Translations under genes and position numbers: made by a program
Sequence record: MW250785
DNA: 64,000 nt
Reading direction: 5' to 3' (one strand)
Origin: Escherichia phage UPEC03
Part shown: one piece after another, positions 5,224 through 62,760 of the stretch
How positions within the stretch are numbered: position 1 is the stretch's first letter
How the letters are laid out: each line of letters opens with the position of its first letter
The notes under the pieces: model-generated
The model's database searches: none
Told to the model about the DNA's origin: nothing
The model's input: the letters and a program-made list of their open reading frames with translations, nothing else

Positions 5224-5756
5224 TAGTAGTTGTTAGCCCAACGACGCAGGTTTTCCGCCTGTTTCAGAGCATACAGCTTGTAGATGGTTTCCGCATCAAG
5301 TCCCAGCGCGAGGAACTTACACATGAAGAAGTGCCACTGGTCAATCAGTTCAAACAGGATTTCCAGTTTGTCTTCTTCTTTCATTTCTGCGAATACCTGG
5401 CTACGCAGTTCCTGGTGATTTGCTTTCCACGGTTTCCAGACACCGGAAGCCGCTTTTGCACCGCGTGACATACCGCCCAGAGCGGTGTAAAGTTCGCGGG
5501 TTTCGTCTGCGATTGCATCATCTTGCAGTTTCAGCCAGTCCAGGATCTCACCGCACGTTTTCAGGTTATCAGGGCGCGGAACCCATGAAAGGGTATCAGA
5601 CAGGCTTTGTTGTGCGTGGTTCTGGAGATCCAGCATTGATTGCAGAGGATCGCCGTTACGTGCCAGAACCTTTTGATATTCGGTATCAACAAATTCCAGA
5701 TCAGCAGGGTTAACCAGGTGCGCACAGCTATTAAAAACAGGAGTTTTATCAGTCAT
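5223..5756 (-). CDS. 56: dCTP pyrophosphatase (dCTPase/dUTPase), gp56-like
   Basis: CAHL..DPLQSMLDLQ..GGMSRGAKAASGVWKPWKA..LEILFELIDQWHF..KLYALKQAEN matches T4 gp56. Confidence 0.85.
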   Translation of the reverse strand: MTDKTPVFNSCAHLVNPADLEFVDTEYQKVLARNGDPLQSMLDLQNHAQQSLSDTLSWVPRPDNLKTCGEILDWLKLQDDAIADETRELYTALGGMSRGAKAASGVWKPWKANHQELRSQVFAEMKEEDKLEILFELIDQWHFFMCKFLALGLDAETIYKLYALKQAENLRRWANNY

Positions 5757-6250
5757 TTATTTGTCTCTTCATTATGAAAATTGCCGAAAATCTCTTTTGC
5801 GGCATCATTGTAAGCGGCTTGTGCTTCTTCAACAGTTGCAAAAGAACCCAAATGTTTTCGTTTGCCCTTATATTGAATACTTGCAGAAAATCGGTTTCCG
5901 CGAGGGTATACACCAATGGAACCGCTTGTGTTGTTTTTACGTTTGTTAATGTGATTTGCATTGTTTTCCGCTGTACTTGCTGGACGCAAGTTATCAGGAA
6001 AGTCACCAACATCAACGCCTTTGATATGGTCAATCATATCAGGGAGATACCCAAAACGCGAGTAAAATATAACACGATGACGCATATATTTCACACCTTT
6101 TGTTTCGATGCGGGTATATCCCTTTTTGGTTTTTGTCCCAGCTTCCATACCATTTTTAAGCCAGTAAACCTTTCCGGTATTGTAATCTATTCTAACCTTA
6201 GTCAGAAGATCCTTTATACCATCTATTTCTTTTTCGGACTTCGATCCCAT
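5753..6250 (-). CDS. HNH homing endonuclease with AP2 DNA-binding domain (paralogue A)
   Basis: HNH core RHRVIFYSRFGYLPDMIDHIKGVDVGDFPDNLR plus AP2-like SGSIGVY...YKGKRKHLGSFATVEEAQAAY; termini overlap genes 61 and 56. Confidence 0.8.
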   Translation of the reverse strand: MGSKSEKEIDGIKDLLTKVRIDYNTGKVYWLKNGMEAGTKTKKGYTRIETKGVKYMRHRVIFYSRFGYLPDMIDHIKGVDVGDFPDNLRPASTAENNANHINKRKNNTSGSIGVYPRGNRFSASIQYKGKRKHLGSFATVEEAQAAYNDAAKEIFGNFHNEETNK

Positions 6251-7251
6251 TGGTTGAATCTCAACTTTGCAGTTAAACCGGACACTGTATTTTCTTTCAG
6301 ATACTTAGCAATGTCTGCTTTGGTAGCACCATCACTTTTAATCATTTCGTTGATATCTTTTGACGGCCAGGGGCATTTATCCCATAAAACGACCTTTTCT
6401 CCAGCATCAATCAATTTTTTTAACCTTGCGGTAGTATCTGGATGATGTCGTTCATTGTCAAGAACCCAGACACGCATATTTTTATACGGAACATCGGACA
6501 GCGCCATTTGTCCGCCCGTAATCGCACCAGCATTATCTACAAACAGGCTATCCAGCGGCCCTTCAAGCAGGTAGACAGGTTTCAACGGATCGATGGTATC
6601 TTGACCATACACTTTCGTTGAGTGTTCACATGCTTTGATTGTCATGTATTTTGCGTTGGCATTGTCACGCAAGGCGCGTCCCTGGAATGACTCGATTTTA
6701 CCCTTTTCATCAAAGATAGGGATCACCAAACGCGGTTCATCCTTCGGTAAAGGGTATGCGTCCGCATTCACAGAGTTAACCAGGTGTTGCCATTGACGCG
6801 TAAACCAGAGGCGATCATATTTGTCTTTAGGTATGTGACGACCTGCAACATACTTAACGATAGGGTGATTTTCTGGCAACGTGTCCAGACGTTCGCAGAA
6901 CTGCAATTCAGGAATATATTTCTTTTCTTCCTTCGGCGGTTCTTCGTGCGTCTGTTTTAAATCTTTACGATCCTTGAAAGATTCCATCAAATACGCGGTA
7001 TAATCATCCGGGTAATAGTCTTTCAGAAACACAGAAAACGGCTTGCTGTAGTTGCAGTTAAAACAACCACACATCATGTGTGTGCCTCGTTTTGACGGGA
7101 ATATCCAGAAACGTTTTTTGTGCTTATCCTTCATGGAGTCGCCACAAATCGGACAACGGGAATGGATACTGAATTCTCCACCCCGTCGAACGATTTCGCT
7201 TTGTGGTAATGATCCCATGATACGAGTTGCGAACTCTATATCAAGATACAT
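6223..7251 (-). CDS. 61: DNA primase, gp61-like
   Basis: 342 aa, zinc ribbon CPICGDS...CFNCNY, TOPRIM region EGPLDSLF..., same length as T4 gp61. Confidence 0.9.
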   Translation of the reverse strand: MYLDIEFATRIMGSLPQSEIVRRGGEFSIHSRCPICGDSMKDKHKKRFWIFPSKRGTHMMCGCFNCNYSKPFSVFLKDYYPDDYTAYLMESFKDRKDLKQTHEEPPKEEKKYIPELQFCERLDTLPENHPIVKYVAGRHIPKDKYDRLWFTRQWQHLVNSVNADAYPLPKDEPRLVIPIFDEKGKIESFQGRALRDNANAKYMTIKACEHSTKVYGQDTIDPLKPVYLLEGPLDSLFVDNAGAITGGQMALSDVPYKNMRVWVLDNERHHPDTTARLKKLIDAGEKVVLWDKCPWPSKDINEMIKSDGATKADIAKYLKENTVSGLTAKLRFNQWDRSPKKK

Positions 7252-19123: not shown

Positions 19124-20104
19124 TTACAGATCCAGCAGTTTATCCAGGTCGTCATCACCGGAACCACCTTCCAGATCAAACGGAGGGGTATTATCATCTT
19201 CCGGTACGCTTCCGCCTACGTTCAGTTGACTTACGCCACCAGATTCTTTAGCACCTTTGGACTGGTTGCCATTATCGAAGTTTTTCAGTTCGTTGTCAAA
19301 TGAGTTCAGTTCTGAATCCAGATCCGCACCAGCGCTTGCGCCAGCACCCATTGCAGCACCACCGAATACTTTGGTGAACTTCGCGGTCAATTCCGCAGTC
19401 GGTTTGAACTGGTCTGGTGCAGTGATTGGACGCAGATCGCTCATACCTTCGAAGATTTCTTTCTGACGCGCTTCGTCTTCGATGCCTTTGATTGGGACAG
19501 GAACACCAAATTTGCTGTCGTCGTAGTTAGGCCAGTCGCCTACTTTCTTCGCGGTCAGGGTGAAGTTAGCGCCACCAAACGGACAGGTTACAGCAACACC
19601 TGGTTCATCCAGATCTGGGTTCCCCGCGATAGCCGCAGTGATTTTATCCATGATCTTTTTACCGAAGCGGAACTTAAACACCTTACCTTCGTTTTCTGGG
19701 TGCATTGGATCTTTAACCACCAGAATGTTCGCCCAGAACGATTGTTTACGTCCGATCATACCCAGTGTTTTTTCGGCTTCGCTGCCTTTCACTTTCGCTT
19801 TTTCGAACAGATCGTTTTCAGAGATATACTGACACACAGGGCAAGCATCGTAATCGCCGTGGGTAGACGGGCAGTTTTCGATGAACCACTGGTTATTCTT
19901 TTTGAATGAATGGTTGACGATACGCACGAACGCCAGTTCATCATCAGATCGGTTAGGCAGGAAGCGGATCACCGCAGAACCGTTTTTCTGTGCATCGACA
20001 CCGAGTTTCCACTCTTTTTCATCTTTCTGGAAGCCGGATGAACCTTTCAGAGCGGCGACTTGTTCTTGCAGTTTGGTTGGATCTTGACGTTTAAAGAATG
20101 ACAT
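19124..20104 (-). CDS. 32: single-stranded DNA-binding protein gp32
   Basis: EWKLGVDAQKNGSAVIRFLP...HGDYDACPVC and acidic C-terminal tail, as in T4 gp32. Confidence 0.9.
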   Translation of the reverse strand: MSFFKRQDPTKLQEQVAALKGSSGFQKDEKEWKLGVDAQKNGSAVIRFLPNRSDDELAFVRIVNHSFKKNNQWFIENCPSTHGDYDACPVCQYISENDLFEKAKVKGSEAEKTLGMIGRKQSFWANILVVKDPMHPENEGKVFKFRFGKKIMDKITAAIAGNPDLDEPGVAVTCPFGGANFTLTAKKVGDWPNYDDSKFGVPVPIKGIEDEARQKEIFEGMSDLRPITAPDQFKPTAELTAKFTKVFGGAAMGAGASAGADLDSELNSFDNELKNFDNGNQSKGAKESGGVSQLNVGGSVPEDDNTPPFDLEGGSGDDDLDKLLDL

Positions 20105-22554: not shown

Positions 22555-23070
22555 ATGACTACAAAGATTTATGCAGATAATGATAAGCTGTATCCAGTTA
22601 TGTGTAAGTGGAAACAGCAAATCCGTGAAACTGGTGATCGTAAGATGCCGGATGAACTCGGTATTGCGATTATGAACATTGCTCACGGTTTGGCACGTCG
22701 ATACAACTTCAACCGTTATTCCGAAGACTGGAAAATGGATATGATCGATGATGGAATTTCGGCAACGATTTCCGGCCTTCATAACTTTGACGAAACCAAA
22801 TATACAAACGTCTACGGTTACATCAACAAGGCTTGCTGGCAAGCGTTTGTAACTCGTATTCTCTACGAGAAGAAAGAGAACGCGAAGAAATACAAATACT
22901 TCCTGGAACATGTCTATGACAGCGATGATACTGATATGACCACGATAGCCGATGAAACTTTCATTCAGGATATCCATGACAAACTTAATCAGTATGAAGA
23001 GTCCGCGAAAAAACCCAAAGATAAAATCGAGGTTGTGGACGAATCGCCAACATTGGAAATGTTTCTATGA
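22555..23070 (+). CDS. 55: late-promoter sigma factor gp55
   Basis: GLARRYNFNRYSEDWKMDMIDDGI...GLHNFDETKYTNVYGYI...DETFIQDIHDKLNQYEES parallels T4 gp55. Confidence 0.85.
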   Translation: MTTKIYADNDKLYPVMCKWKQQIRETGDRKMPDELGIAIMNIAHGLARRYNFNRYSEDWKMDMIDDGISATISGLHNFDETKYTNVYGYINKACWQAFVTRILYEKKENAKKYKYFLEHVYDSDDTDMTTIADETFIQDIHDKLNQYEESAKKPKDKIEVVDESPTLEMFL

Positions 23071-23294
23071 AAATTAAAATTGACCTGAACAAAATTTTAG
23101 CAGATGCTAACGACGAAATTGATCTGCTTCCTTACCTTGTGAAATTAGAGTTGCAGAGCTTAGGGATTCCGATTATCATCGACCCTACAGATGTACGAGA
23201 TCCAGACTTCCAGATAACAGAAGGTCGTCTGGACTATGTAATAAACGCCGAAACAATGATCATGGAGATCACTTACTATGAACGTGCAGCATGA
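23067..23294 (+). CDS. hypothetical protein
   Basis: ORF. Confidence 0.4.
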   Translation: MKIKIDLNKILADANDEIDLLPYLVKLELQSLGIPIIIDPTDVRDPDFQITEGRLDYVINAETMIMEITYYERAA

Positions 23295-23622
23295 AGTAAT
23301 CGACGAAGTACACCAAAAATCAGCGCTGGATCTTCGTGAAGAAGAACTGGACTCCATCAAGGGTACACGCATTGAACAGGAAGCCCTACGCAAAGCGCAA
23401 AAGTTCATGCGGAAGAACAAAGCGGAATGGAAGCGACTGCATAAACACGCAGAGAACGCACTCTTCGAAGGTAACAAAGAGCAGTACGTATACGCGATCA
23501 AAAAGATGCGTGATATGCTCAAGCAACCATACAACGATGAACTGATTGAAACGATGTGGATCACTTCGAACCAACAGTTGAAAGACCTGTTCATCATGGC
23601 TTCTGAAAAATACGGCAAATAA
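23278..23622 (+). CDS. hypothetical protein
   Basis: ORF. Confidence 0.45.
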   Translation: MNVQHEVIDEVHQKSALDLREEELDSIKGTRIEQEALRKAQKFMRKNKAEWKRLHKHAENALFEGNKEQYVYAIKKMRDMLKQPYNDELIETMWITSNQQLKDLFIMASEKYGK

Positions 23623-23645
23623 ACCCCTTCGGGGGTTTTGAGGTT
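23620..23645 (+). terminator. GC hairpin AACCCC-TTCG-GGGGTT followed by T-run
   Basis: Seen in sequence. Confidence 0.55.
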
Positions 23646-23648
23646 TAT

Positions 23649-24668
23649 ATGAACTATGTTTTAATTGGGGATACCCATGCCGGACTTCGCCAGGATAACC
23701 CATGGAACGAAGAAAACCTGTATGCGGTATTCAAACAGATCGTAGAGTATTGCAAAGAACACGGGATCACGCGCGGCTTCCATGCTGGCGACTTCTTCGA
23801 CGTTCGAAAAGCAACCACACAAACGACAATGAATTTTGTTCGTGAAAAGCTGGTTCCTCTTCTGATTGAGGCGGGGATCACTCTGGATGTTCTTGTCGGC
23901 AACCACGATTGCCAATTTAAGGACAAAATACACCCCAACGCGCCACGCGAGATACTAAGTCAATACGAATGCTTTAATGTCATCGACGAACCGACCACGG
24001 TTGATTTAGGTGGCGGAAATTCGATTGACCTGATCCCGTGGATTTGTCAGGAAAACAGCCAGCGTATTTTTGACTACATCAAACAATCGAAAGCTAACTT
24101 TTGTTTGGGACACTTCGAACTGTCTGGTTACTATTTCTACAAGAACAGCAAAGCCGATCATGGGCTGGAACCTGATTTCTTGAAGAAGTACGATCGTGTT
24201 TACTCTGGACACTATCACCACGCTAACGAAGGTGACAACGTGTTTTACATCGGTACGCCTCTGACTATGAGCGCGAACGACGAAGACGAAACACGCGGTT
24301 TCTATGTGTTTACGGGCAAGCCTGAATTGACTTTCATCGCTAACCCTGTGTGCCACCATCGCCGGATCATGTATCCAGCACAGAAAGATGTTGATCTTGA
24401 ACAGTTCCGCAACTGCGCGGTGCGTCTGATTGTTAGTGAAATTGATCAGGGGCTTGCAAAGTTCCAAACCAAAATCGAAGAAATTGCCTATGAAATCAAC
24501 ATCATAGACAAAGTTAAAACAGATTCAGATGTCGATACCGACTTTGAAATCAAAACCGTTCGTGGGCTTATCACTGAGTATGTCGCCAACATGCAGATCA
24601 CCGACGATGAAAAAGAGGAAGTGAATAAGCTGATCAGCGAACTATACGCGGAGGTGTCAAGTGCATAG
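23649..24668 (+). CDS. 47: recombination endonuclease subunit gp47 (Mre11-like)
   Basis: 339 aa; phosphoesterase motifs GDTHAG, GDFFDVRKA, GNHD; co-linear with T4 gp47. Confidence 0.9.
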   Translation: MNYVLIGDTHAGLRQDNPWNEENLYAVFKQIVEYCKEHGITRGFHAGDFFDVRKATTQTTMNFVREKLVPLLIEAGITLDVLVGNHDCQFKDKIHPNAPREILSQYECFNVIDEPTTVDLGGGNSIDLIPWICQENSQRIFDYIKQSKANFCLGHFELSGYYFYKNSKADHGLEPDFLKKYDRVYSGHYHHANEGDNVFYIGTPLTMSANDEDETRGFYVFTGKPELTFIANPVCHHRRIMYPAQKDVDLEQFRNCAVRLIVSEIDQGLAKFQTKIEEIAYEINIIDKVKTDSDVDTDFEIKTVRGLITEYVANMQITDDEKEEVNKLISELYAEVSSA

Positions 24669-24942
24669 CCGTTATGATGAATATTTCGGGGCGAACCCCC
24701 GATATTCTCACCTGTTGCGTATGTTGGGAATGAAACACATCATTTCCACATCCAACGAAGCAGGGGAAACCAGCGCAGTTTGTTTGACCATCATGAAGGG
24801 TGCATGGCATTCATCACGAACATGGTCAATATTCATGCTTGATACACTGGACGACGATACTCTATCATATAGTATTGATTCATCAGTTGTTCAAATGATC
24901 ACTGAATTATGTGAACGGATTTTAAATGAAACTAAAAACTAA
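24661..24942 (+). CDS. hypothetical protein
   Basis: ORF between 47 and HNH gene, overlaps both. Confidence 0.35.
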   Translation: MHSRYDEYFGANPRYSHLLRMLGMKHIISTSNEAGETSAVCLTIMKGAWHSSRTWSIFMLDTLDDDTLSYSIDSSVVQMITELCERILNETKN

Positions 24943-25456
24943 ATCACATGGAGGTGGAAACCGAACAATTGATGATGAAATTTCTTCAATAAATGAACTA
25001 CTTCCTATGTTGGATGTTGATGTTGTATTAGGAAAGATATACTGGAAAAACTCACCTCGTAAGAGCGTCCCTGCTGGAACTGAAGCAGGGAGTAAGACAA
25101 AACATGGTTACGTTGCTATCGGGTATAAAAAGACGTATTATAGACGACATCGAATAATATTTTACGTCGCTAATGGTTATCTTCCTCTCGTAGTAGATCA
25201 CAAACACGGTGTTGAATCTGGTGATGGAATAGATAACCTGCAAGACATCACGCAACAACAAAACTCCGTTAAAATGAGAATGAGTAGAAGGAATTCTTCT
25301 GGGTTTAGAGGGGTTTCCTTTCACCAAAAATCAGGAAAATGGCAATCATGTATTGTGTATAATAGAAAAACAATATATCTTGGTTTGTATGAAACACCAG
25401 AACTTGCACATAGTGCATATACAGACAAGCGAAAAGAATTATTTGGTGAAATATGA
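24926..25456 (+). CDS. HNH homing endonuclease with AP2 domain (paralogue B)
   Basis: RRHRIIFYVANGYLPLVVDHKHGVESGDGIDNLQ + AP2-like SGFRGVSF...GLYETPELAHSAY; inserted between genes 47 and 46 with ATGA overlap to 46. Confidence 0.8.
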   Translation: MKLKTKSHGGGNRTIDDEISSINELLPMLDVDVVLGKIYWKNSPRKSVPAGTEAGSKTKHGYVAIGYKKTYYRRHRIIFYVANGYLPLVVDHKHGVESGDGIDNLQDITQQQNSVKMRMSRRNSSGFRGVSFHQKSGKWQSCIVYNRKTIYLGLYETPELAHSAYTDKRKELFGEI

Positions 25457-27144
25457 AATTAAATTTCCGTAAAATTAAGTATCAAAATATTCTGTCGGTC
25501 GGGAACACCCCGATCGAACTGGAATTTGATACGGCAAAGAAAACCCTGATCACGGGGAAAAACGGTGGCGGTAAATCGACACTGATCGAGGCGTTAACCT
25601 ATGCCCTGTTCGGTAAATCATTCCGCGATCTAAAAGTCGGGCAGTTGGTGAACAGCGTCAACAAAAAGAAATGCCTGGTTGAACTGGAAATCGAATACGG
25701 GAAAGACTCGTACAAAGTGGTGCGCGGACAAAAGCCGAAGGTGTTCGAGATCTGGAAGAACGGTGAGAAGTTGCCGGAAGACTCCGCAGCAGGTGATTAT
25801 CAGGCACAGCTTGAATCTATGCTGAACATCAACCTTGTGGGCTTCAAACAGGTTATCGTTCTGGGTACAGCGGGTTACACCCCATTCATGGAACTGAAAA
25901 CCCCAGAACGCCGGAAACTGGTTGAAGATTTGCTGTCTCTGTCCGTCATCAGTGAAATGGATAAGCTGAACAAGTCATACATTCGCGGTGTTAATCAGCA
26001 GTTGGATACGCTCTCAATGCAGGGTAATCACATCCAGCAGCAGATCGCAACACATCAGCGCTTCATTGACGAACAGCGAGCGAAAGCGAACCAGAACAAC
26101 GCCCGATACAAAGAGATCTATGATAGCCACGTAGAAACCGCAAAGAACATCAAAGCACAGCTTATGCAGTTGCAAGCGGAGATTGCGGAATCGGTGATCA
26201 CTGGAGAAGACCGGACGGAAGATATCAACAAACTCCGTGACGGTTATTCGCGGCTCTCAATGACTGTAGAACAGTTTAAAAAGCTGGAGGTGATGTATCA
26301 GAAAGGCGGTGAGTGTCCGGCCTGTAAGCAAGCGATTAAACCCACTCCTGAGCGTATGGCGGAGATCGCAGAGAACATCAAAGCGGGCACACAACGTTTA
26401 ACCCTGATCAAAACCAAACAGGACGAGTTACAAGGGATCATGAATGACTTGCTGCAACAGCAACGCGCACTCAATGCCCTGAAAACCAAATATGAAGCCC
26501 TGAAAGGTACTCTGCAAAACGAAGTTGCCAATGCTAAACGAGCACAGGCGATCATGGAACAGGCAAGCGCGGAAGTAGTCATTGATGAAGAACCCGTGAA
26601 GCAGTTGCAACAGCAGGAAGCAGAACTGAACGAAAAACGACAAGGCTACGTCAAGGAAAAATACATTCGTGGTATTGTTACTGATATGTTGAAAGATTCC
26701 GGCGTTAAGGCCAGCATTGTTAAGCGCTATATTCCGTACTTCAACAAACAGATAGCATATTATCTGGATCTGTTGGGTGCGGATTACCAGTTCACTTTAG
26801 ATGACGAGTTCAACGAATCGATCAAATCACTGGGGCGCGATGATTTCAGTTATGCGTCATTCAGTCAAGGCGAACGTGCTCGCATCAACTTGTCTATTCT
26901 GTTCACATGGCGTGACGTGACAAGTAAAGTATCAGGCGTGGATCTGTCTCTGCTGATTATGGACGAAGTTTTCGATAACGCTCTTGATAAAGAAGGTGCG
27001 TTTGCTGTAGGGGCTGTTCTGAATGGTATTGATGGTAATATCATGGTGATTAGCCACAACGATTTAGACCCTGGTGATTTCGATCGTCATATCGTCATGG
27101 CTAAATTGGGGCGCTTCTCGAAGATGGAAATCAAGAAGTCTTAA
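25453..27144 (+). CDS. 46: recombination endonuclease subunit gp46 (Rad50/SbcC-like ATPase)
   Basis: 563 aa; Walker A GKNGGGKST, coiled coil with CPAC zinc hook, C-terminal signature; co-linear with T4 gp46. Confidence 0.9.
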   Translation: MKLNFRKIKYQNILSVGNTPIELEFDTAKKTLITGKNGGGKSTLIEALTYALFGKSFRDLKVGQLVNSVNKKKCLVELEIEYGKDSYKVVRGQKPKVFEIWKNGEKLPEDSAAGDYQAQLESMLNINLVGFKQVIVLGTAGYTPFMELKTPERRKLVEDLLSLSVISEMDKLNKSYIRGVNQQLDTLSMQGNHIQQQIATHQRFIDEQRAKANQNNARYKEIYDSHVETAKNIKAQLMQLQAEIAESVITGEDRTEDINKLRDGYSRLSMTVEQFKKLEVMYQKGGECPACKQAIKPTPERMAEIAENIKAGTQRLTLIKTKQDELQGIMNDLLQQQRALNALKTKYEALKGTLQNEVANAKRAQAIMEQASAEVVIDEEPVKQLQQQEAELNEKRQGYVKEKYIRGIVTDMLKDSGVKASIVKRYIPYFNKQIAYYLDLLGADYQFTLDDEFNESIKSLGRDDFSYASFSQGERARINLSILFTWRDVTSKVSGVDLSLLIMDEVFDNALDKEGAFAVGAVLNGIDGNIMVISHNDLDPGDFDRHIVMAKLGRFSKMEIKKS

Positions 27145-27841
27145 ACTTGCAGTTGTCAAAATGCCATCGTTTCATATTGGTGGCATCACCAACTTTAGCG
27201 CAATGGGGGCAAGTTAATTGCTCCCTTTTCTTTTGTATTTTTCTGTCTGGGTTCTGGGTACAATATGGAATATGGCTGTTCAAGTAATGCACTGTCGATT
27301 CTGTACCACAATGAGGACAAGAACCGCGATCTGATACTACGTTGCTGTTTTTATGTGCTCGCATGACTCCTGCAAATGCATTCACTTTCCCTTCATTGCC
27401 TGGCTTGTGCTTGCAGTTGTCGAAGTGCCAGCGGTTCATATTACCTACTAAGCCGGACGTATTGCAATGAGGACACGTAACCCTGTTCTGTTGAAGTTTG
27501 GCCTGTCTCATGCGTAAGCGTGTCTCTTCGCTGAACTCTTTTTGTTTCTGGGCTTCAAGTGCTTTTTCTTTTAACCATCCATAGCGGCGGTTTGCTGTAC
27601 GCGCAGACGATCGAGAAGTGCCGACTGTAAGCATGTTAGCAGCATAAATTAGTTTATGGTTGCCTGGATACATCTTAACCAATAGCAGATGTGCTATGAA
27701 ATGTTGACGTGCTGACAGTTCAACCAGATTTTCGGGATCGTCCGATCCTCCCATACATTTTGGAACGATGTGATGTTTCTCTTTGTACTTTGCATCCGTT
27801 CCGGTAGTCATGAGTTGTTCGTAAATCTTATGATAATTCAT
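27131..27841 (-). CDS. HNH endonuclease with repeated CxxC zinc-finger modules
   Basis: HHIVPKCMGGSDDPENLVELSARQHFIAH HNH core; three CPHC...W(H)FDNCK repeats; 3' end overlaps 3' end of gene 46 convergently. Confidence 0.75.
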   Translation of the reverse strand: MNYHKIYEQLMTTGTDAKYKEKHHIVPKCMGGSDDPENLVELSARQHFIAHLLLVKMYPGNHKLIYAANMLTVGTSRSSARTANRRYGWLKEKALEAQKQKEFSEETRLRMRQAKLQQNRVTCPHCNTSGLVGNMNRWHFDNCKHKPGNEGKVNAFAGVMRAHKNSNVVSDRGSCPHCGTESTVHYLNSHIPYCTQNPDRKIQKKREQLTCPHCAKVGDATNMKRWHFDNCKFKTS

Positions 27842-27889
27842 GATGATGAACCCTGTTTGATAGTCCGTTAGATACCCCTATTTAGGAAC

Positions 27890-28087
27890 ATGATTATGTT
27901 AGAACGTGAATTTGATTTAAAGACCTCTCCCGAAGTGGAGAGGTTTTATCTCCATAATGAACTATTGGAAGAAAAACATGTAGTTACAATGGCAGATGTT
28001 GAGGAAGCATTCAAAGATAACCCCATTGAATTGACACGCATCAAGAATAATAAATCTTCGGTGTGGTTCCTCGAAAAAATCTATTGA
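27890..28087 (+). CDS. hypothetical small protein
   Basis: ORF. Confidence 0.3.
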   Translation: MIMLEREFDLKTSPEVERFYLHNELLEEKHVVTMADVEEAFKDNPIELTRIKNNKSSVWFLEKIY

Positions 28088-28112
28088 CAGCAAAACATAA
28101 ATACCTTAAAGT
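28084..28112 (+). promoter_or_regulatory. candidate sigma70-type promoter TTGACA-17-TAAAGT upstream of J-domain gene
   Basis: Perfect -35, weak -10; followed by GAGG SD and ATG 28159. Confidence 0.4.
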
Positions 28113-28158
28113 TGCCCGTGTACTGAGTTACATGGGCTTTTATTTTGAGGAACGGAAA

Positions 28159-29859
28159 ATGATTAACGAACAAATGTCACACAGCGAAGCATTGAAGATT
28201 TTGGGCGCTACTGGCGACGAATCTAAAGCTGAACTGTCAAAGCTCTTTAAACGTGCTTCTCTGCGCAATCACCCCGACCGTGGTGGTAGCACTGAACTCA
28301 TGCAGAAAATCAACCAGGCGTATGACGTTGTAACCAAAACAAACAGCGCTGGTAAAACTTACAGTGATGTTCGCGCAGAACACGCAGCAAACAAAAAAGC
28401 ATGGGAAGAAAAATTTGCAGCGTATTTCGTGGTTGCGAAAAACTATTTCAGCACGAAATTCAACGCGCAAGAGTTCGCGGAATACTTCACGAAATTCACC
28501 GGACAACCAACAACCTATACTCAGTCAATCAGCGAAGTTCGCGGTCATACTGTTCACGCGACATATCGTTTCACCTCTGGTGATGCGTTCTTTGACTTCT
28601 CTTTCTCTTGTCAACCGCCGAACGGTCAAGGTTTAGCAGCGCCGGACGCGTCCGCACTGGGTAGCGTATCGGTTAATACTCTGGTTCTGGTTGGTACGAA
28701 GAAACACAAAATGGCAAGCCGTGATTACCAATGGGGCAAGAACCCAGACAAAATCACGCCGGAAAGCCTGTTCCCTGCTAAGAAACTGGAATCCATCTTT
28801 AGCCCGACTAAGAAGGATCTCAAGTTCAAACGCGCAGACTACATGACATCCTTTGCCCGTATCTTGGGTGCGAAGGTTAGCGGTAACGATGTTATTGTTG
28901 ATGTTGGACACTATAAAGTTCACTTCTACCGTCACGTATTCATGCGTAAAGGCGCGTATGTGTTCCAGTATGTTGTTGACCCAACTGTGAACAAATTCAA
29001 ACCTGCTGAACGTCTGAAAGGTACTATGCTGGAAGATGAAGACGGTGCATGTCTGGATATGATCATCGACACTTTCAAAGAAATGCAGAAAGTGAAACCA
29101 GACGCAAGCGGCATCGCAGCGGTAATCGACCGGATGAACGCAGAGTTTGCAGCGGGGCATCGTTCAGCATCTTTTGTTAAACGTACCGCACAGCAAGCAG
29201 CAGCACCAGCGCCGGAAGAGAAACCAAAACGCACCGTTAACCGCATCAATAAAGATGACTATTTCAACGCACTGAAACAAGCAGGGGCAACATTCCGCAG
29301 TAACTACGGTGAGTTTGATAACGGCGCGGGTTTGACTTTCCACTTCAAACGCGAGATCAGCAACCGCAAAGGTTTCTGGAGTTTCAGCAGCTTTGATTTC
29401 ATGCACTCCGGTCAGAAACATGTGGAATGGTTGAAAGATATCGACATTGATGAGGATAGCAAAGGCGCAAGTATCGGTTTGCTGGTTGATACCCTGAAAC
29501 AACTTCGTGGTGTTGCTGACTGGTACACAGCCCGTAAGATCCTTGAAGGTATGCGTGATAACTTCAAGGCTGGTAAATTCTCCGCACCTCATGTGAAGAA
29601 AGAAGCCGAACAGAAACGCACTGAAACGCAAGCTAAGGACGAGTTAGGCGCACAGCCTACGAAACCACAGGCAGCGAATAAAGAATCCCCAGCGGTTGAT
29701 AAGGCGCATCAGGCACAGATGGATCGTGAGAAGTCACAGATGAATGCAACCATTCGTTCTATGCTCTCTGCCCTGGTTAAAGCCGGACGCAAAGACACGC
29801 CGGAAGAAATTAAAAAAGCAGTCGATGAAGCAATCGCTCTTTGGCGCTTGAAACACTAA
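28159..29859 (+). CDS. J-domain (DnaJ-like) protein, Rki-like
   Basis: N-terminal J domain ALKILGATGDESKAELSKLFKRASLRNHPDRGG...INQAYDVV with HPD motif; ~490-aa C-terminal region without recognisable domain. Confidence 0.8.
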   Translation: MINEQMSHSEALKILGATGDESKAELSKLFKRASLRNHPDRGGSTELMQKINQAYDVVTKTNSAGKTYSDVRAEHAANKKAWEEKFAAYFVVAKNYFSTKFNAQEFAEYFTKFTGQPTTYTQSISEVRGHTVHATYRFTSGDAFFDFSFSCQPPNGQGLAAPDASALGSVSVNTLVLVGTKKHKMASRDYQWGKNPDKITPESLFPAKKLESIFSPTKKDLKFKRADYMTSFARILGAKVSGNDVIVDVGHYKVHFYRHVFMRKGAYVFQYVVDPTVNKFKPAERLKGTMLEDEDGACLDMIIDTFKEMQKVKPDASGIAAVIDRMNAEFAAGHRSASFVKRTAQQAAAPAPEEKPKRTVNRINKDDYFNALKQAGATFRSNYGEFDNGAGLTFHFKREISNRKGFWSFSSFDFMHSGQKHVEWLKDIDIDEDSKGASIGLLVDTLKQLRGVADWYTARKILEGMRDNFKAGKFSAPHVKKEAEQKRTETQAKDELGAQPTKPQAANKESPAVDKAHQAQMDREKSQMNATIRSMLSALVKAGRKDTPEEIKKAVDEAIALWRLKH

Positions 29860-35333: not shown

Positions 35334-35616
35334 TTGTCGCGTCGTAAACAAGTATAAAGGTAGCTGGGATGTCGATATTCAGAGAGGTACGAAATTCGGC
35401 AATCCCTTCTACAAGGGAACACGGGCTGAAAACATAATGAACTTCATCCCGTATTTCCAAAACTTGATTCGAACTGGCGTGATCACAATCGACGAACTGA
35501 AAGCATTGGACGGGAAGCGGTTAGGATGTACATGCAAACCTCTACCGTGCCACGGTGATTATATTGCTCACTGCGTCAATGTGTTGACCGGAAAGGTGAA
35601 TAAGTTGGATATATAA
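35305..35616 (+). CDS. small protein with GNPF ... CxC...PCHGD motif (DUF4326-like)
   Basis: Motif-level resemblance only; start chosen at internal ATG. Confidence 0.4.
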   Translation: MQNGDKNTLDCRVVNKYKGSWDVDIQRGTKFGNPFYKGTRAENIMNFIPYFQNLIRTGVITIDELKALDGKRLGCTCKPLPCHGDYIAHCVNVLTGKVNKLDI

Positions 35617-36014
35617 TGGACGATGTAACATTTGGTGTAATATTTCCTTTGCGTCTGGGTTCAGACAAGAGGATAGACCGGAGTTTCGTTAAATGTGGCG
35701 AATTCCGGCATTGTGTGTATTTTATTGAAATTGACGGTCGGATAGTGTATGTTGGAAAATGTCGTGATTTGTGGAAGCGGTTAGACACATACCGCAATTC
35801 GAAATACTGGCGGGAAGCAAACCCCAGTAATATTCTGAAAACCGCACGTCTGGAAATGGCAATCAAAAAACGTAAGCGTGTAAATCTTATCGTGACAACA
35901 CACGATGAAGACACATATCATGATTTTGAAATAAACATGATCCGAAAAATCAATCCTGAATGGAACAAACAGCACTATGACAAAGCTAACCAAAAATCAG
36001 AAAACCCTCTTTGA
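35616..36014 (+). CDS. GIY-YIG nuclease-domain protein (short, homing-endonuclease-like)
   Basis: VYFIEIDGRIVYVGKCRDLWKRLDTY resembles GIY-x10-YIG motif with conserved R and downstream E/N; lacks long DNA-binding tail. Confidence 0.5.
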   Translation: MDDVTFGVIFPLRLGSDKRIDRSFVKCGEFRHCVYFIEIDGRIVYVGKCRDLWKRLDTYRNSKYWREANPSNILKTARLEMAIKKRKRVNLIVTTHDEDTYHDFEINMIRKINPEWNKQHYDKANQKSENPL

Positions 36015-43991: not shown

Positions 43992-44568
43992 CGGGATCGC
44001 CGTAAAATGGCAGTCGGGGTTGCCGTTCTTTTTGTCTAAACACAACATGCCGACCGATATCGCGCTGGATATGGTTACGGATGAAAAGTTCCGCGATATG
44101 ACCGAAATCTTCGGGTGTGATCACCAACTGGCGAAAATTCTCATGGAAGAATACAACAACAGTTCGTTTATTCGCTATCTAAGCGCGTATGACGATGCGT
44201 TAATTGTTATCAACCGTCTGAAAGCCAAATATGATTTTGTGGCTGTCACGGCGCTGGGAACCACTCCTACGGCAAGCCTTAACCGTATTGCAAACCTGAA
44301 CACGCTGTTCCCTTCTGCATTCAAAGAGGTTTGTGTTGTCGGTCACGGCGAAACGAAAGTACATCGTTACCTGGAAGCCAAAGCAAAATATGGCGATCGT
44401 TTAGTATGTTTCATTGATGACCTTGCAGTAAACTTGAATGAGTGTCATAACGTCATCAGTCAGTTGCCGTTATTCCATATGTTGCGTGGCGAACGTAGTG
44501 AACCGAGTGTACCTCATACTAAAGTGAATAACTGGCATGAAATTGAAAAAGCAATTGAGAACTCTTGA
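43963..44568 (+). CDS. HAD-superfamily hydrolase (possible deoxynucleotide 5'-monophosphatase)
   Basis: Motif I LTDIDGI, C-terminal FIDD. Confidence 0.45.
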   Translation: MKPVILTDIDGIAVKWQSGLPFFLSKHNMPTDIALDMVTDEKFRDMTEIFGCDHQLAKILMEEYNNSSFIRYLSAYDDALIVINRLKAKYDFVAVTALGTTPTASLNRIANLNTLFPSAFKEVCVVGHGETKVHRYLEAKAKYGDRLVCFIDDLAVNLNECHNVISQLPLFHMLRGERSEPSVPHTKVNNWHEIEKAIENS

Positions 44569-45088
44569 TGAAGAAACGCAAGGTATAGAAAACCTACTAC
44601 AATGTATTCGAGTAGAACCAGAAACCGGAAAATGTTTCTGGTTGGAAAAGAGAAGTAATAAAATTCCTGCTGGAAGTGAAGCAGGTTCTTTTCATAAATC
44701 AAGTGGATATACGCGAATAAAATTCGAAAATGCGATGTACATCCGGTCACGGGTGATATTTTATTACGTTAATGGTTATCTTCCAGTGATGGTTGACCAT
44801 GTTCACGGTGTTGAATGCGGTGATATGATTTCTAATCTAAGGGAGTCCAATCAGGTAACAAATCAACAAAACCGCACACGGAATAAAAATAATACCGTTG
44901 GGTTTAAGGGCGTGTCATTCAACAAGAAATCGCAAAAATATAGCGCCAAAATCACTTTACATGGAGTGACTAAGTGGTTAGGATTTTATGATTCTGCCGA
45001 GGAAGCAAGTGAAGCATATAAGGCCAAAGCACTCGTTTCCTTTACACATAATGAAAGGTACTTAAATGATCTTACAGATTCTAAATGA
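44537..45088 (+). CDS. HNH homing endonuclease with AP2 domain (paralogue C)
   Basis: RSRVIFYYVNGYLPVMVDHVHGVECGDMISNLR + AP2-like VGFKGVSF...GFYDSAEEASEAY; overlaps both flanking genes. Confidence 0.8.
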   Translation: MKLKKQLRTLDEETQGIENLLQCIRVEPETGKCFWLEKRSNKIPAGSEAGSFHKSSGYTRIKFENAMYIRSRVIFYYVNGYLPVMVDHVHGVECGDMISNLRESNQVTNQQNRTRNKNNTVGFKGVSFNKKSQKYSAKITLHGVTKWLGFYDSAEEASEAYKAKALVSFTHNERYLNDLTDSK

Positions 45089-46589
45089 ACTCGCTTCGAC
45101 TCTGAAAATTTCAGAGAAGGAAGCGATCCTGAAACGTAATGCAGGTAATGATCTGCTGAAAGAGATTTTCCGCATTACGTACACGAAACAGATTATGTTT
45201 CACATTAAGAAGTTTCCGCAGGTGGACGGTAAGCCAGGCACAACCCCGCTATCGAATGCTATCGCGGATTTGATGTCTGATTTGGCAACGCGAAAATATA
45301 CGGGCAACGCAGCCCGTGATCGTCTGCTGGATATCGTATCATCGGTGAACGAGAATGATCGCGAAGTGCTTCGCCGTATCATTAACCGCGATCTGGAATG
45401 TGGTGCTGGTACAACGTTACCGAACCGCGTATGGAAGAAACTCATTCCAGAACAGCCTCAATGCCTCGCTACGCCGTTTAGTGAGAAAGCCTTAAAACGT
45501 ATTCGCTTCCCTGCTTACTCGCAGCTTAAAGCCGATGGTGCGCGTTGTATGTCCGATCTGTTAGAGAATCAGATCCGCAAAGCAACCCGCGCGGGAAATG
45601 AGTATGAAGGTTTGGTGAATCTGGACAAGGATCTGAAAAAGATTCGTGAATATCTGGGTTATGATGTTGTACTTGATGGAGAACTGATTTATGTCCCTGC
45701 TGAAAAAACTGCTGTCGTTCCTTCAAACAGCGTTCCATTTAGTCTTGCTGGGTTTATGGGCGATGACGACGATTCTGTTTCTGACCTTGTGGCAGATGTT
45801 AGGCGGGAAGCTACCGAGAACGAGACACAAGCGGAAGCGAAACGCGAAGAGGGCAACGGGATTGTAAACAAATCCCTGAAAGGTACTATCAGCGACGAAG
45901 AACAGCGCAATATCGTTTATGTTGTCTGGGATATCGTACCGTATGAAGTATACTATGGCGATGCTCCGAGTGTTCAACCATATTGCGATCGTTTCTCTAT
46001 CCTGGAAGGTGCGCTGGCTGGCTCTGGTGTAACATCGGTTAAGTTGATCCCTTCTATCCTGGTGCAGAACTACGCGGAAGCGAAAAAGGATTACAACAAT
46101 TACCGCAATGACGGTAAAGAGGGTTCAATCCTGAAAAACGTTGATTTCAAATGGAAGGATTCACGCGTTGCGGATCAGGTGAAGTTGAAGAACAAAACCC
46201 CGATTGAACTGCGAATCATCGACGTGTACGAACACACCAAAGAAGCTCATAAGGTCGGAGGGTTCGTGGTTGAGGACTTATCAGGAGAAGCCAGAACAAA
46301 CACAGGTTCCGGTCTGACTGATACGGACTACCGATACGATGAAGACGGTATTAACCGCGTGTACATCCCGTTAGAAGAACGTGGTGAACTGGATCGCGAA
46401 TACATCATGGCGAACAAAGATGACTATATCGGCGCTATCGTCGAAATGGAAGTTGACGGACTCCAGAAGTCTAAAACGCGTAAGAAGGGCGAACCTGAGT
46501 TCAGTTTCTTCTTGCCAATCATCAAGAAGATCCGACGCGATAAGACCGAACCGGATGATATTCACGTTATCTTCGCTGATCTGTTTTAA
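45066..46589 (+). CDS. 30: ATP-dependent DNA ligase gp30
   Basis: MILQILNELAS...FPAYSQLKADGARC (adenylation Lys)...co-linear with T4 DNA ligase. Confidence 0.9.
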   Translation: MILQILNELASTLKISEKEAILKRNAGNDLLKEIFRITYTKQIMFHIKKFPQVDGKPGTTPLSNAIADLMSDLATRKYTGNAARDRLLDIVSSVNENDREVLRRIINRDLECGAGTTLPNRVWKKLIPEQPQCLATPFSEKALKRIRFPAYSQLKADGARCMSDLLENQIRKATRAGNEYEGLVNLDKDLKKIREYLGYDVVLDGELIYVPAEKTAVVPSNSVPFSLAGFMGDDDDSVSDLVADVRREATENETQAEAKREEGNGIVNKSLKGTISDEEQRNIVYVVWDIVPYEVYYGDAPSVQPYCDRFSILEGALAGSGVTSVKLIPSILVQNYAEAKKDYNNYRNDGKEGSILKNVDFKWKDSRVADQVKLKNKTPIELRIIDVYEHTKEAHKVGGFVVEDLSGEARTNTGSGLTDTDYRYDEDGINRVYIPLEERGELDREYIMANKDDYIGAIVEMEVDGLQKSKTRKKGEPEFSFFLPIIKKIRRDKTEPDDIHVIFADLF

Positions 46590-46605
46590 ATAGCACTTTT
46601 TGCTA

Positions 46606-46680
46606 AAAAGCCCCTTGCATGAGTAAGGGGCTTTTGTTATATTACAAACATCGAAACGAAACAGACAAAAGGAACATCCC
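46606..46680 (+). promoter_or_regulatory. PeSL-like cassette: terminator hairpin containing -35 TTGCAT, 17-nt spacer, -10 TATATT, conserved leader ACAAACATCGAAACGAAACAGACAAAAGGAAC
   Basis: Seen in sequence; best-preserved copy. Confidence 0.55.
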
Positions 46681-46953
46681 ATGCAAATCACTAAAGAACT
46701 CGAAGGCAAAGTAATCGTTCTGGTAAATGAAGACCGTTTGGCACAACTGGGTAACGGTGGTGAAAAACTGCCAGCGGACGCACTCGAAAGCCTTTCTAAA
46801 ATGCGTGTGATGCGTGTTACTGACGGTTGGGTTACTTGTCTGCCTCTGAACGACGAAGACAAAGCCGTATACGATGCACAAGCGGATTCATGGGATATCG
46901 AAGTACCTCTGGTAAACATCGAAGTTGAAGAGTGCTACGAAATCGAAAAATAA
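46681..46953 (+). CDS. hypothetical acidic protein
   Basis: ORF directly after cassette. Confidence 0.45.
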   Translation: MQITKELEGKVIVLVNEDRLAQLGNGGEKLPADALESLSKMRVMRVTDGWVTCLPLNDEDKAVYDAQADSWDIEVPLVNIEVEECYEIEK

Positions 46954-47014
46954 TGCTTGCTTACTGGGTAATGTAGTGGTACATTACCCATATCGAAACG
47001 AAAGGAGAAACATC
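46930..47014 (+). promoter_or_regulatory. cassette variant: -35 TTGCTT, spacer containing perfect 10-bp inverted repeat GGGTAATGTA/TACATTACCC, -10 TACATT, leader ATATCGAAACGAAAGGAG
   Basis: Seen in sequence. Confidence 0.5.
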
Positions 47015-47194
47015 ATGAAAATTATGCACACTGCAAATCAACTTCAAAACGGCAACTACGCTATCCACGATGCTATCGGTGCGCTGGTTGGGGTTTATCT
47101 TCATGGTATCAAACTCCTTGAAGTAAGTGGGAATACCTTTTATGGTGTTGAAAACATCGAAGCAGCGATGGAAATTATCGGTGACCTGAAATGA
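47015..47194 (+). CDS. hypothetical small protein
   Basis: ORF from internal ATG with AAGGAG SD. Confidence 0.4.
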   Translation: MKIMHTANQLQNGNYAIHDAIGALVGVYLHGIKLLEVSGNTFYGVENIEAAMEIIGDLK

Positions 47195-47382
47195 GTAAGA
47201 AACTCGAAATATTCGAAACTATCAGCGAAGACCCTAATCATCGCTGGTGCTGTGCGAAAACTGGTTTTGATGCTGCATGGGGTGATACTCCAGAACAGGC
47301 GCGTAAAAACTGGGAACACCAACAATTGTTTTTTGCCTGTCGGGTTCCTACCAATTATGAGGGGAGTCAATTGTTAGCATGA
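47191..47382 (+). CDS. hypothetical small protein
   Basis: ORF. Confidence 0.35.
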   Translation: MSKKLEIFETISEDPNHRWCCAKTGFDAAWGDTPEQARKNWEHQQLFFACRVPTNYEGSQLLA

Positions 47383-47675
47383 AAAATAAAGAATATGACC
47401 CAATAGAAGTTAAAGAGCGGTTATCGGTAGCAAGAAGATTCCTTGAATCTATCGACCCTGATAAACTTGGAAAATGCCCTGATACGATTTGCCTTAATTG
47501 TGGGCGATCCGTAATGGTTGGAAAGTGCTGTGATAATCAGAATATCGTTATCATGGACAGGAAAGAAGTTTCACCGGAAGTATGGGATCGGATTCAAGAG
47601 ATCATCAAAAACCCACCTGAACCGACGAAACGTTTACGCGAACTTATGAGCAGGAAACCACGTTATGAAAAATGA
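47379..47675 (+). CDS. hypothetical protein with Cys-rich zinc-ribbon-like motif (CPDTICLNCG...KCC)
   Basis: ORF. Confidence 0.4.
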   Translation: MKNKEYDPIEVKERLSVARRFLESIDPDKLGKCPDTICLNCGRSVMVGKCCDNQNIVIMDRKEVSPEVWDRIQEIIKNPPEPTKRLRELMSRKPRYEK

Positions 47676-48039
47676 ACCAAGTAAAACTATCCGCCTGATC
47701 CGTTGGGAAGGGCAAGAAATCCGTTATGAAGACGACGACCGCGAATTCGTCCATGAAATGCTTGCGCATAATCTGGGATTCAAAAACGCCGCACTGGTGA
47801 TGATGCAACAAACCAGCGATGAAGACACCTGGCAATGCGTCATTCTCGATCTGGACAAAAACAAGGAATACACCGAAGATGAACTGTTTGCGCTCACAGA
47901 GAACGCTACAGCGCGTCAGAAGTGCTTCATGATCGATATGCCTCGCGAGAACTACGAGAATATCAAGAAAGCCCGTAAACAGAACAAGAACAACGTGTTC
48001 GACCTGTTCATGGGCTATCATGAAGAAACTACGGCCTAA
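47665..48039 (+). CDS. hypothetical protein
   Basis: ORF. Confidence 0.4.
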   Translation: MKNEPSKTIRLIRWEGQEIRYEDDDREFVHEMLAHNLGFKNAALVMMQQTSDEDTWQCVILDLDKNKEYTEDELFALTENATARQKCFMIDMPRENYENIKKARKQNKNNVFDLFMGYHEETTA

Positions 48040-49139: not shown

Positions 49140-49201
49140 TAGACATCCTCCCTTTATATTCTATTTACTAAATAGTAAATATCGGGATACTTGAGGCGAT
49201 C

Positions 49202-62170: not shown

Positions 62171-62250
62171 GGTATGTTCCTTTTCAGTTTCGTTTCGGTA
62201 AAGCTAATGTATCACTATCCTGGTCAGTATGCAATGTTTAATTTTGCAAA
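62171..62250 (-). promoter_or_regulatory. cassette copy: -35 TTGCAT, 17-nt spacer, -10 TACATT, leader ...CCGAAACGAAACTGAAAAGGAAC
   Basis: Read on minus strand. Confidence 0.45.
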
Positions 62251-62760
62251 TTTACCAAAATGTTTTATCGCTTCCCGATCGTATGCTTTTGCAGCCTCGT
62301 ATTCGTCACGATAGGAACCGATATGTTTAACCTTGCCGTCAATCTTTATCTGTGCAATGTAACGTATTCCAGTAGGTTGATCACGTACACATACACCCTT
62401 GAATCGACTGGTTGCTACTCTTCGTTTAGTCCGGTTCTGACAGTTTCGGGATTGATCCGCTTCACGCAAGTTATCAATCCCGTCGCCAGCCTCAACACCA
62501 TTTTTATGATCAATCACATCAGGCAGTTTTCCGGTTGCAACGTAGTAGATGATTCGATGACGTAGATATCCTTTGCTTTTGAAATAAACGCGGGTATATC
62601 CTCCTTTAATCTTCGAACCTACTTCCTTTCCGATCAAGTCAGAACGTTTGTGTGACGTTCGTATAATTGTCCCCGTTTGTATATCAACAGAAACAGTTTT
62701 AAGGAATTCGTCAATTCCTTTCTGTTCTTCTTCGATTGTTCTTAGTCCGTTGTGTGACAT
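62224..62760 (-). CDS. HNH homing endonuclease with AP2 domain (paralogue D)
   Basis: RHRIIYYVATGKLPDVIDHKNGVEAGDGIDNLR + AP2-like SRFKGVCV...HIGSYRDEYEAAKAY; overlaps 3' end of C5-MTase gene. Confidence 0.8.
   Translation of the reverse strand: MSHNGLRTIEEEQKGIDEFLKTVSVDIQTGTIIRTSHKRSDLIGKEVGSKIKGGYTRVYFKSKGYLRHRIIYYVATGKLPDVIDHKNGVEAGDGIDNLREADQSRNCQNRTKRRVATSRFKGVCVRDQPTGIRYIAQIKIDGKVKHIGSYRDEYEAAKAYDREAIKHFGKFAKLNIAY

Follow-up and report, generated by a model that had tools for sequence, protein, structure and literature searches.

In phage T4, genes of the Seg and Mob families spread by intronless homing, in which break repair in mixed infections is accompanied by co-conversion of flanking sequence and by localised marker exclusion (PMC2988022). 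The four phage genes described here resemble T4 SegF, SegG, SegE and MobE in that they are freestanding open reading frames (ORFs) placed between conserved, often essential genes (PMC2988022). However, T4 Seg enzymes are of the GIY-YIG type and Mob enzymes combine an HNH domain with a zinc-binding C-terminal region, and neither group has an AP2 domain. Furthermore, activity has been demonstrated for Seg and Mob, whereas it is predicted for the products of our four genes, which we call HEG-A to HEG-D (HEG, homing endonuclease gene). Another related enzyme is I-HmuI of Bacillus phage SPO1 (PDB 1u3e), which shares with the four proteins an N-terminal DNA-binding sheet and a zinc-free 'HNN'-type HNH motif (LVVDHKxG...NL...N), although it is encoded within an intron and its C-terminal DNA-binding region is helical, in the place taken by AP2 in HEG-A to -D. 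The IPA-HNH HEGs of the Vibrio phage ICP1 also combine an N-terminal HNH with a C-terminal AP2 domain and lie beside essential genes (Barth et al. 2023, PMC10448857), but their HNH domains have diverged too far to be recognised by the Pfam HNH_3 model, which is detected directly in HEG-A to -D. In that work HEGs were found at breakpoints of similarity between phages, described as 'nuclease genes at boundaries of genetic exchange' (PMC10448857).

Neither the gene family nor these particular genes are new. The HNH-AP2 family was first described by Magnani et al. in 2004, as cited in two later papers (PMC1524935 and PMC2993671). A 2006 study reported HNH-AP2 genes from RB43 and RB49 (Nolan et al., PMC1524935), and counts published in 2010 gave three for RB43, six for RB16, one each for KP15 and RB49, and two for JSE (Petrov et al., PMC2993671, Table 5). 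The HNH-AP2 HEGs of these five phages are the same genes as those studied here, with no essential difference. In the published accounts of RB43/RB16-type HEGs we found no analysis of flank tracts, target signatures or cross-genus identity, and the literature searched contained no biochemical characterisation of an HNH-AP2 enzyme from a T4-like phage; the paper on Xanthomonas phage HNN-AP2 genes is comparative only (PMC2248197).

Four HNH-AP2 genes and their domains

UPEC03 is a T4-like Pseudotevenvirus of the RB16/RB43/GAP161 group (Straboviridae). We analysed a single stretch of 64,000 nt from this Escherichia phage (record MW250785), hereafter the window. HEG-A (5753-6250, minus strand) is a 165-aa HNH-AP2 ORF at the junction of the primase gene 61 and gene 56, and its orthologue, RB43ORF027c, occupies the same junction. 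HEG-B (24926-25456, plus strand; 176 aa) is inserted precisely at the gene 46 start codon and corresponds to 'putative homing endonuclease RB16 1'. HEG-C (44537-45088, plus strand; 183 aa) corresponds to 'RB16 4' and lies at the junction between 30.2 and the DNA ligase gene 30. HEG-D (62224-62760, minus strand; 178 aa) lies downstream of a C5 cytosine methyltransferase gene, and its orthologue in Enterobacter phage EC-F1 is annotated 'RB16 6'. The initial annotation had reported four HNH+AP2 genes, and we found an ORF at exactly each of the positions it gave, with an I-HmuI-type HNH region followed by AP2 in every one. Neighbouring genes were named from annotated relatives, which bore out its placement of HEG-A between genes 61 and 56, of HEG-C before the ligase gene and of HEG-D after the methyltransferase gene.

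The four proteins are 40-43% identical, whether compared pairwise to HEG-B or to one another, with 36 invariant columns. Pfam HNH_3 was detected in all of them (E = 5e-7 for HEG-B, 2.3e-4 for HEG-A, 9.3e-4 for HEG-C and 3e-6 for HEG-D), its gathering score being reached by HEG-B and HEG-D only, and all four matched the PHROG family phrog_99, 'HNH endonuclease', at E = 1e-47 to 1e-53. Pfam AP2 was matched by HEG-B (E = 1.5e-6), HEG-A (5.9e-4) and HEG-C (2.2e-4), every score lying below the gathering threshold; HEG-D gave no Pfam AP2 match but nevertheless retains the conserved AP2 columns in the alignment. When a profile made from the four sequences was compared with known structures, it matched plant AP2/ERF domains over positions 120-173 (WRI1, E = 3e-11; TEM1, E = 2.7e-7; also ERF1), and it also matched I-HmuI 1u3e at E = 6e-3. 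The AlphaFold model of HEG-B (pLDDT 90.4) has I-HmuI 1u3e as its best PDB match in Foldseek (113 aligned columns, probability 1.00), with AP2 domains next; its own AP2 portion fits TEM1 and ERF1 to within 1.1-1.5 A. The motif D-H...N-L...N (VDHKxG...DNL...N) aligns to the HNH motif region of I-HmuI and was intact in 14 of the 14 family members examined, among them all four copies and orthologues. All four proteins have an HNH nuclease domain with its catalytic His and Asn residues, and a C-terminal AP2 domain is indicated by Pfam, the profile, the HEG-B model and the conserved columns in HEG-D.

The genes lie outside introns and inteins and leave the adjacent genes intact, as seen in ORF maps and junction alignments. 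A family HMM run against the six-frame translation of the window returned exactly four copies of the HNH-AP2 family, with no truncated copies or fragments. The family is very common among phages: a homologue was found by tblastn in 2601 records. The four proteins are not HNH enzymes of the T4 Mob type, since they carry AP2 instead of a zinc ribbon and contain no CxxC zinc sites; a Mob-like gene (27131-27841, minus strand; phrog_655) is present in the window separately from the four. Nor are they terminase-associated HNH genes of the HK97 gp74 type, which adjoin terminase genes and the packaging site and are conserved in all relatives: HEG-A to -D sit in operons for replication, recombination and nucleotide metabolism, and most relatives lack them.

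The description of the four genes as paralogues in the initial annotation is right in the family sense only. Synonymous sites are saturated between the four copies, which are therefore long-diverged members of the family and did not arise by recent duplication within the genome. Each copy belongs to its own site-specific lineage, with same-site proteins 77-100% identical and different-site proteins 28-53% identical. At least seven site lineages exist in the phage group, and the additional ones are located ahead of gene 47 in Banach and ENC19, after gene 46 in RB16 and ENC19, and ahead of 30.2 in EC-F1. Enzymes at ~40% identity would be expected to differ in specificity.

Distribution of insert-free alleles

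A very close relative is EC-F1 (MN508623.2), with an overall identity of ~99.5% (99.46% over 6278-43966, 99.9% over 45062-49159 and 100% in the 47/46 region). EC-F1 carries HEG-B and HEG-D and is without HEG-A and HEG-C. The window phage and EC-F1 therefore make up a natural near-isogenic pair (99.5%) that differs in these two genes.

HEG-carrying records were counted by megablast coverage among Pseudotevenvirus records, 61 of which were matched in the HEG-B search. HEG-A was present in about six (EcL22g, Banach, GAP161, phi1_146002, Citrof4 and RB43) and missing from EC-F1 and RB16. HEG-B was carried by three (EC-F1, phi5 and RB16), HEG-C by about 11, including RB16 and Miller, and HEG-D by about six (KPN-11i, EC-F1, leE, HMGUkp1, Banach and R2_1). 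Other close relatives align with a gene-sized gap at each junction, and empty sites were read base by base at four of four junctions. Phage Lw1 has no HNH-AP2 gene and members of the group carry one to six (PMC3861415). HEG-A and HEG-B occur together in no record of the phage collection and, compared with RB16/RB43-type phages, UPEC03 combines four site lineages in a set found in no single collection record.

The initial annotation had proposed that the same junctions be compared in related genomes, and had named as evidence against mobility that every relative would have these genes at these junctions, with no insert-free allele. This comparison found the opposite pattern, with insert-free alleles in the majority at every junction in Pseudotevenvirus and each gene sporadically distributed.

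Insertion sites and their linked flanks

Site B lies in a recombination operon on the plus strand. Gene 47 (23649-24668) encodes a Mre11/SbcD-like recombination nuclease subunit, according to annotation in relatives and Pfam Metallophos_2, and is followed by orf93 (24661-24942), a conserved 93-aa ORF between gene 47 and the insertion point (phrog_7762, E = 5e-50). Gene 46 (25453-27144) encodes the Rad50/SbcC-like subunit, and its start codon overlaps the stop codon of HEG-B (ATGA). HEG-B is a clean 527-bp insertion at the gene 46 ATG, flanked by an 11-nt repeat, ATGAAAyTAAA; indeed, BLAST segments to the empty-site phage GAP161 overlap by 11 nt, which is the direct repeat. The left copy of the repeat, ATGAAACTAAA (24926-24936, plus strand), is the original gene 46 start and is now the start of HEG-B. 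The right copy, with one mismatch, lies in the gene 46 start of the HEG+ allele, ATGAAATTAAATTTCCGT (25453-25470, plus strand), together with five HEG-linked substitutions.

HEG-B overlaps orf93 by 17 nt and gene 46 by 4 nt. It had been described as lying between genes 47 and 46 and as splitting an operon that is contiguous in T4. Gene 46 is indeed the downstream neighbour, but the upstream neighbour is orf93 and not gene 47. Since orf93 separates gene 47 from the insertion point in HEG-less relatives too, HEG-B splits no contiguous pair, and in T4 itself genes 46.2 and 46.1 sit between 47 and 46. The similarity of orf93 to T4 gp46.2 is marginal (E = 0.02).

The overlaps with neighbouring genes had been taken for a footprint of homing endonucleases. 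HEG-A, HEG-B and HEG-C do overlap their neighbours on both sides, whereas HEG-D does so on the upstream side only (19 nt) and is followed by a 53-nt gap. However, the empty alleles have the same overlaps (17 nt for orf93/46, which predates HEG-B, and 23 nt for 30.2/ligase), and the overlaps are therefore a feature of the compact operon layout rather than a trace of the HEGs.

Within the first 18 nt of gene 46, the HEG-linked substitutions fall at 25459, 25464 and 25468-25470. They consist of two synonymous changes and a change from AAA to CGT (Lys to Arg), in which all three codon bases differ. All ten distinct HEG+ loci read ATGAAATTAAATTTCCGT, including those with the divergent RB16 background and with a 78% HEG variant, and the HEG-less alleles all read ATGAAACTAAACTTCAAA or ATGAAACTAAACTTTAAG, the GAP161 version being ...TTTAAG. 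The five substitutions track the presence of HEG-B without exception (10 HEG+ loci vs ~39 HEG-less phages). Among 47 phage records, each HEG-less one differs from the HEG+ type at a minimum of five positions in 100 nt, and none combines an HEG-less allele with the HEG+-type gene 46 start; likewise, no HEG-less 'immune' gene 46 allele was found in IMG/VR, which holds very few phages of the group. Such a pattern would fit selection for nucleotide change with minimal protein change, and the recoded gene 46 start is the predicted altered, cleavage-resistant half of the HEG-B target site. The target need not be the recoded 18 nt, however, because freestanding T4 endonucleases often cut away from the insertion site (PMC2988022). 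The five substitutions provide a concrete and cheaply testable target prediction for the HNH-AP2 enzyme family in T4-like phages.

The divergent tract at site B is only ~20 nt long, whereas per-site profiles at sites A, C and D show divergent tracts of ~240 nt in the upstream gene. At site A, 521 nt stand in place of 59 nt made up of the final 52 nt of gene 61 and a 7-nt spacer. The HEG-A start codon lies within the recoded gene 61 tail and the stop codon overlaps the gene 56 ATG, giving overlaps of 28 nt upstream and 4 nt downstream. The gene 61 3' end linked to HEG-A (6251-6462, minus strand; linked tract ~6223-6462) differs from HEG-less alleles mainly through synonymous recoding, and the tract 6223-6462 has 64 mismatches to EC-F1 in 240 nt, with ~0 beyond it. 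Downstream of HEG-A, the 5' part of gene 56 (5557-5716, minus strand) is also divergent, with 46 mismatches to EC-F1 in 160 nt and 0 further away; the 250-nt bin from 5501 holds 44 mismatches to EC-F1, against a genome background of 0.8%.

At site C, 57 nt of the 30.2 tail have been exchanged for 565 nt, and the element supplies a new 30.2 C-terminus. The last eight codons of HEG-C are the former 30.2 tail, its C-terminus LNDLTDSK matching the end of 30.2 in empty alleles. HEG-C overlaps its upstream neighbour by 32 nt and its downstream neighbour by 23 nt, the latter being the old 30.2 tail that overlaps the ligase start. The substituted 30.2 3' end that accompanies HEG-C (44329-44568, plus strand) has 51 mismatches in 240 nt to the HEG-less phage Nando.

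At site D, HEG-D takes the place of an ORF of 78 aa (JC03) or 146 aa (GAP161), with its ATG at the same position. It is thus not wedged between essential genes, as had been proposed for all four, but replaces a 78- or 146-aa ORF downstream of the methyltransferase gene. The 3' end of the methyltransferase gene (62758-62997, minus strand) is divergent from HEG-less alleles, with 45 mismatches to JC03 in 240 nt and then 0. No genome among those examined carries both HEG-D and an alternative ORF at this site: RB16, in which both had been expected, has no HEG there, and in leE the extra ~250 nt that separate HEG-D from the next gene are an unrelated small ORF and not a remnant of the alternative ORF. 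Since the ORF was replaced and no examined genome carries both, the original insertion event at site D is not reconstructable.

We also looked for promoters that would belong to the HEGs. A sigma-70-type scan of 23000-28200 gave 13 sites vs 9.5 +/- 3.3 expected, its best site (24839-24868) lying in sequence common to HEG-less alleles, and the T4 late-promoter core TATAAATA is absent from the whole window. There is thus no evidence for an HEG-specific promoter, as no convincing candidate was found.

Horizontal movement and its interpretation

The identity of the HEGs is decoupled from that of their flanks. HEG-B and its RB16 copy show 0 differences in 527 nt, and the proteins are also 100% identical, whereas the flanks differ at 149 of 1020 nt in gene 47 and 219 of 1417 nt in gene 46 (~85% identical). 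An identical HEG-B protein occurs on 16 contigs, always at the gene 46 junction, and in the six backgrounds read base by base the identical HEG-B is accompanied by flanks that are 0-13% different from the window. Conversely, an HEG-B variant with 77.8% nucleotide and 82% protein identity occupies the same site between flanks that are 98-99% identical to the window. HEG-A has 100% nucleotide identity to its counterparts in GAP161 and in the Slopekvirus KLB21, a Klebsiella phage, and 94.6% to that of RB43. Gene 61 of KLB21 matches that of the window at 100% over its last 240 nt, against 73.6% over its first 780 nt. HEG-A and these 240 nt of primase sequence, unchanged between two genera, make a clean case of an HEG carrying part of an essential gene across phage genera. 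Similarly, HEG-C is 99.4% identical to that of Citrobacter phage Miller, and the 30.2 sequence at 44329-44536 shows 0 differences to Miller in 208 nt, whereas the sequence upstream of it is 76-91% identical. The comparison with EC-F1 gave 374 mismatches in 48 kb, 135 of which are concentrated in the four 250-nt bins on either side of HEG-A and HEG-C, i.e. in ~2% of the length aligned. Divergence spikes adjoin every insert, from A to D.

Taken together, the sporadic distribution, the HEG identity decoupled from flank identity and the linked flank tracts lend good support to the reading in the initial annotation that the four genes are freestanding homing endonucleases. We conclude, with a probability of roughly 0.85, that they are HNH-AP2 homing endonucleases, each in its own site-specific lineage, which have spread recently among co-infecting Pseudotevenvirus and Slopekvirus phages.

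As judged from dN/dS values of 0.03-0.24, the HEG orthologues are under purifying selection: HEG-A gave 0.03 against RB43 (24 synonymous and 3 non-synonymous changes) and HEG-D gave 0.11-0.24 against leE and phT4A, comparable to flanking genes. Selection of this strength might mean that the genes are domesticated and beneficial rather than purely selfish, either excluding the markers of competitors in co-infection or serving as AP2-type DNA-binding regulators. T4 HEGs are known to exclude markers (PMC2988022), and the domestication of HEGs has been discussed (PMC10448857); in addition, coupling of start and stop codons ties the genes into their operons, and an HEG-D orthologue adjoins the methyltransferase gene in all Slopekvirus records among the matches listed. 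However, most close relatives are without each gene and are yet viable, isolated phages, Lw1 having none at all (PMC3861415), and the intact catalytic motif argues against a purely regulatory role. We therefore regard domestication as unlikely to be the explanation, and it would in any case be compatible with homing and no replacement for it.

The genes might also be inactive relics of homing endonucleases that moved passively when the modules around them underwent ordinary recombination. Models of the HEG life cycle predict decay after fixation, as discussed for the Xanthomonas phage HNN-AP2 genes (PMC2248197), but all four ORFs here are full-length with the D-H...N...N motif intact, their dN/dS is well below 1 and the window holds no truncated copies. 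The break in similarity ~240 nt short of the gene 61 terminus likewise occurs between HEG-less phages of the two genera, and some of the flank mosaicism may therefore be ordinary recombination and not HEG-induced repair. The blocks of identity are nevertheless centred on the HEG with short tracts on each side and are not large modules, and we consider the relic explanation very improbable. Finally, although patchy presence alone cannot separate gain from loss and alternative ORFs fill the slot at site D, it is scarcely credible that these are ancestral genes deleted in most relatives, given the 0 differences in 527 nt of HEG-B between backgrounds 13-15% diverged, its 78%-identical variant at the same site between near-identical flanks, the 100% identity of HEG-A across two genera, and the ~39 independent empty sites that are exact, identical and scarless with a consistently different flank allele, which repeated precise deletion would not yield.

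If the four genes are indeed homing endonucleases, we propose the following route. In a mixed infection, the enzyme would bind DNA through its N-terminal beta-sheet and C-terminal AP2 domain and recognise the uninterrupted junction of an HEG-less genome, which for HEG-B would be the gene 46 start, around TTTTAAATGAAACTAAACTTCAAAAAAATT. The I-HmuI-type HNH site would cut at this junction. I-HmuI nicks one strand and, by analogy, the phage enzymes may cut one strand too, in which case replication or a second cut would convert the nick to a break. The recombination machinery of the phage would then repair the break from the HEG-carrying genome, copying in the HEG plus tens to ~240 nt of its flanks. 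The resulting HEG+ allele would be protected, as its target is split by the insert and altered in the flanking half-site by substitutions that hardly affect the neighbouring protein. The HEGs would be read within host operons, starting at or inside the end of the previous gene and stopping on or just past the next start codon. Endonuclease activity, the exact target, a nick as opposed to a double-strand break, and unidirectional inheritance in crosses are what we infer from the sequence comparisons.

More tentatively, we raise a possibility that we hold to be rather doubtful at present, namely that HEGs may set the exchange boundaries of essential-gene segments between Pseudotevenvirus and Slopekvirus, such as the primase 3' end, the Rad50-like 5' end and the 30.2/ligase junction, and may be single-strand nickases expressed only by translational coupling, with the downstream start codon taken over. 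If HEGs do act as exchange boundaries, it is HEG content that would decide which alleles win in cross-genus co-infections.

Further endonuclease-like genes in the window

Gene 46 is followed directly, in the opposite orientation, by a gene for a Mob-like HNH endonuclease (27131-27841, minus strand; 236 aa) that overlaps the end of gene 46; its product carries an HNH motif and several zinc ribbons and matches phrog_655, 'homing endonuclease', at E = 1e-62. This endonuclease gene is likewise sporadic: relatives that match at 90% coverage have it, and those that match at 72% lack it. The slot that it occupies in the window is filled by an HNH-AP2 gene in RB16 and ENC19.

A short GIY-YIG-like ORF of 132 aa (35616-36014, plus strand) sits between the RNA ligase gene and a small ORF that lies downstream from nrdB. 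Its Pfam GIY-YIG match is below threshold (E = 1.2e-3), its match to phrog_1111, 'endonuclease', reaches E = 8e-45, and in Enterobacter phage EC-F1 it is annotated as 'homing endonuclease'. Counting this ORF, the window holds at least six genes resembling homing endonuclease genes (HEGs). The T4 late-promoter core TATAAATA was also scanned for on both strands and has no occurrence in the 64 kb, where about two would be expected by chance.

Differences from EC-F1 and leE

EC-F1 carries a further HNH-AP2 gene of 170 aa, annotated there as 'hypothetical protein', at 865-1377 of the EC-F1 stretch L010, which corresponds to window position ~43966. It is inserted at the start of 30.2, and the site of HEG-C, the HNH-AP2 gene before ligase gene 30 in the window, is one gene downstream. 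The window also diverges from EC-F1 at positions 19501-20000, where 43 of 500 nt are mismatched and the background is 0.8%; this patch, which no HEG adjoins, corresponds to the single-stranded DNA-binding protein gene, as placed by offset from the EC-F1 annotation.

At the site of HEG-D, the HNH-AP2 gene downstream of the C5-methyltransferase gene, about 250 extra nt separate the HEG from the next gene in phage leE (1173-1476 of the leE stretch L023, equivalent to window ~62171-62223), and these contain a 71-aa ORF that carries no annotation, together with a duplicated 31-nt piece of the intergenic sequence.

The tail of primase gene 61

Within primase gene 61, similarity breaks about 240 nt short of the gene's end (window 6223-6462), a break that HEG-less phages have in common too. 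Between Slopekvirus KP13MC5-1 and Pseudotevenvirus EC-F1, the 61 tail and gene 56 are 99% identical, whereas the initial 780 nt of gene 61 reach only 74% identity. Two allelic cassettes, one containing HEG-A (the HNH-AP2 gene between genes 61 and 56) and one lacking it, appear to circulate across Slopekvirus and Pseudotevenvirus.
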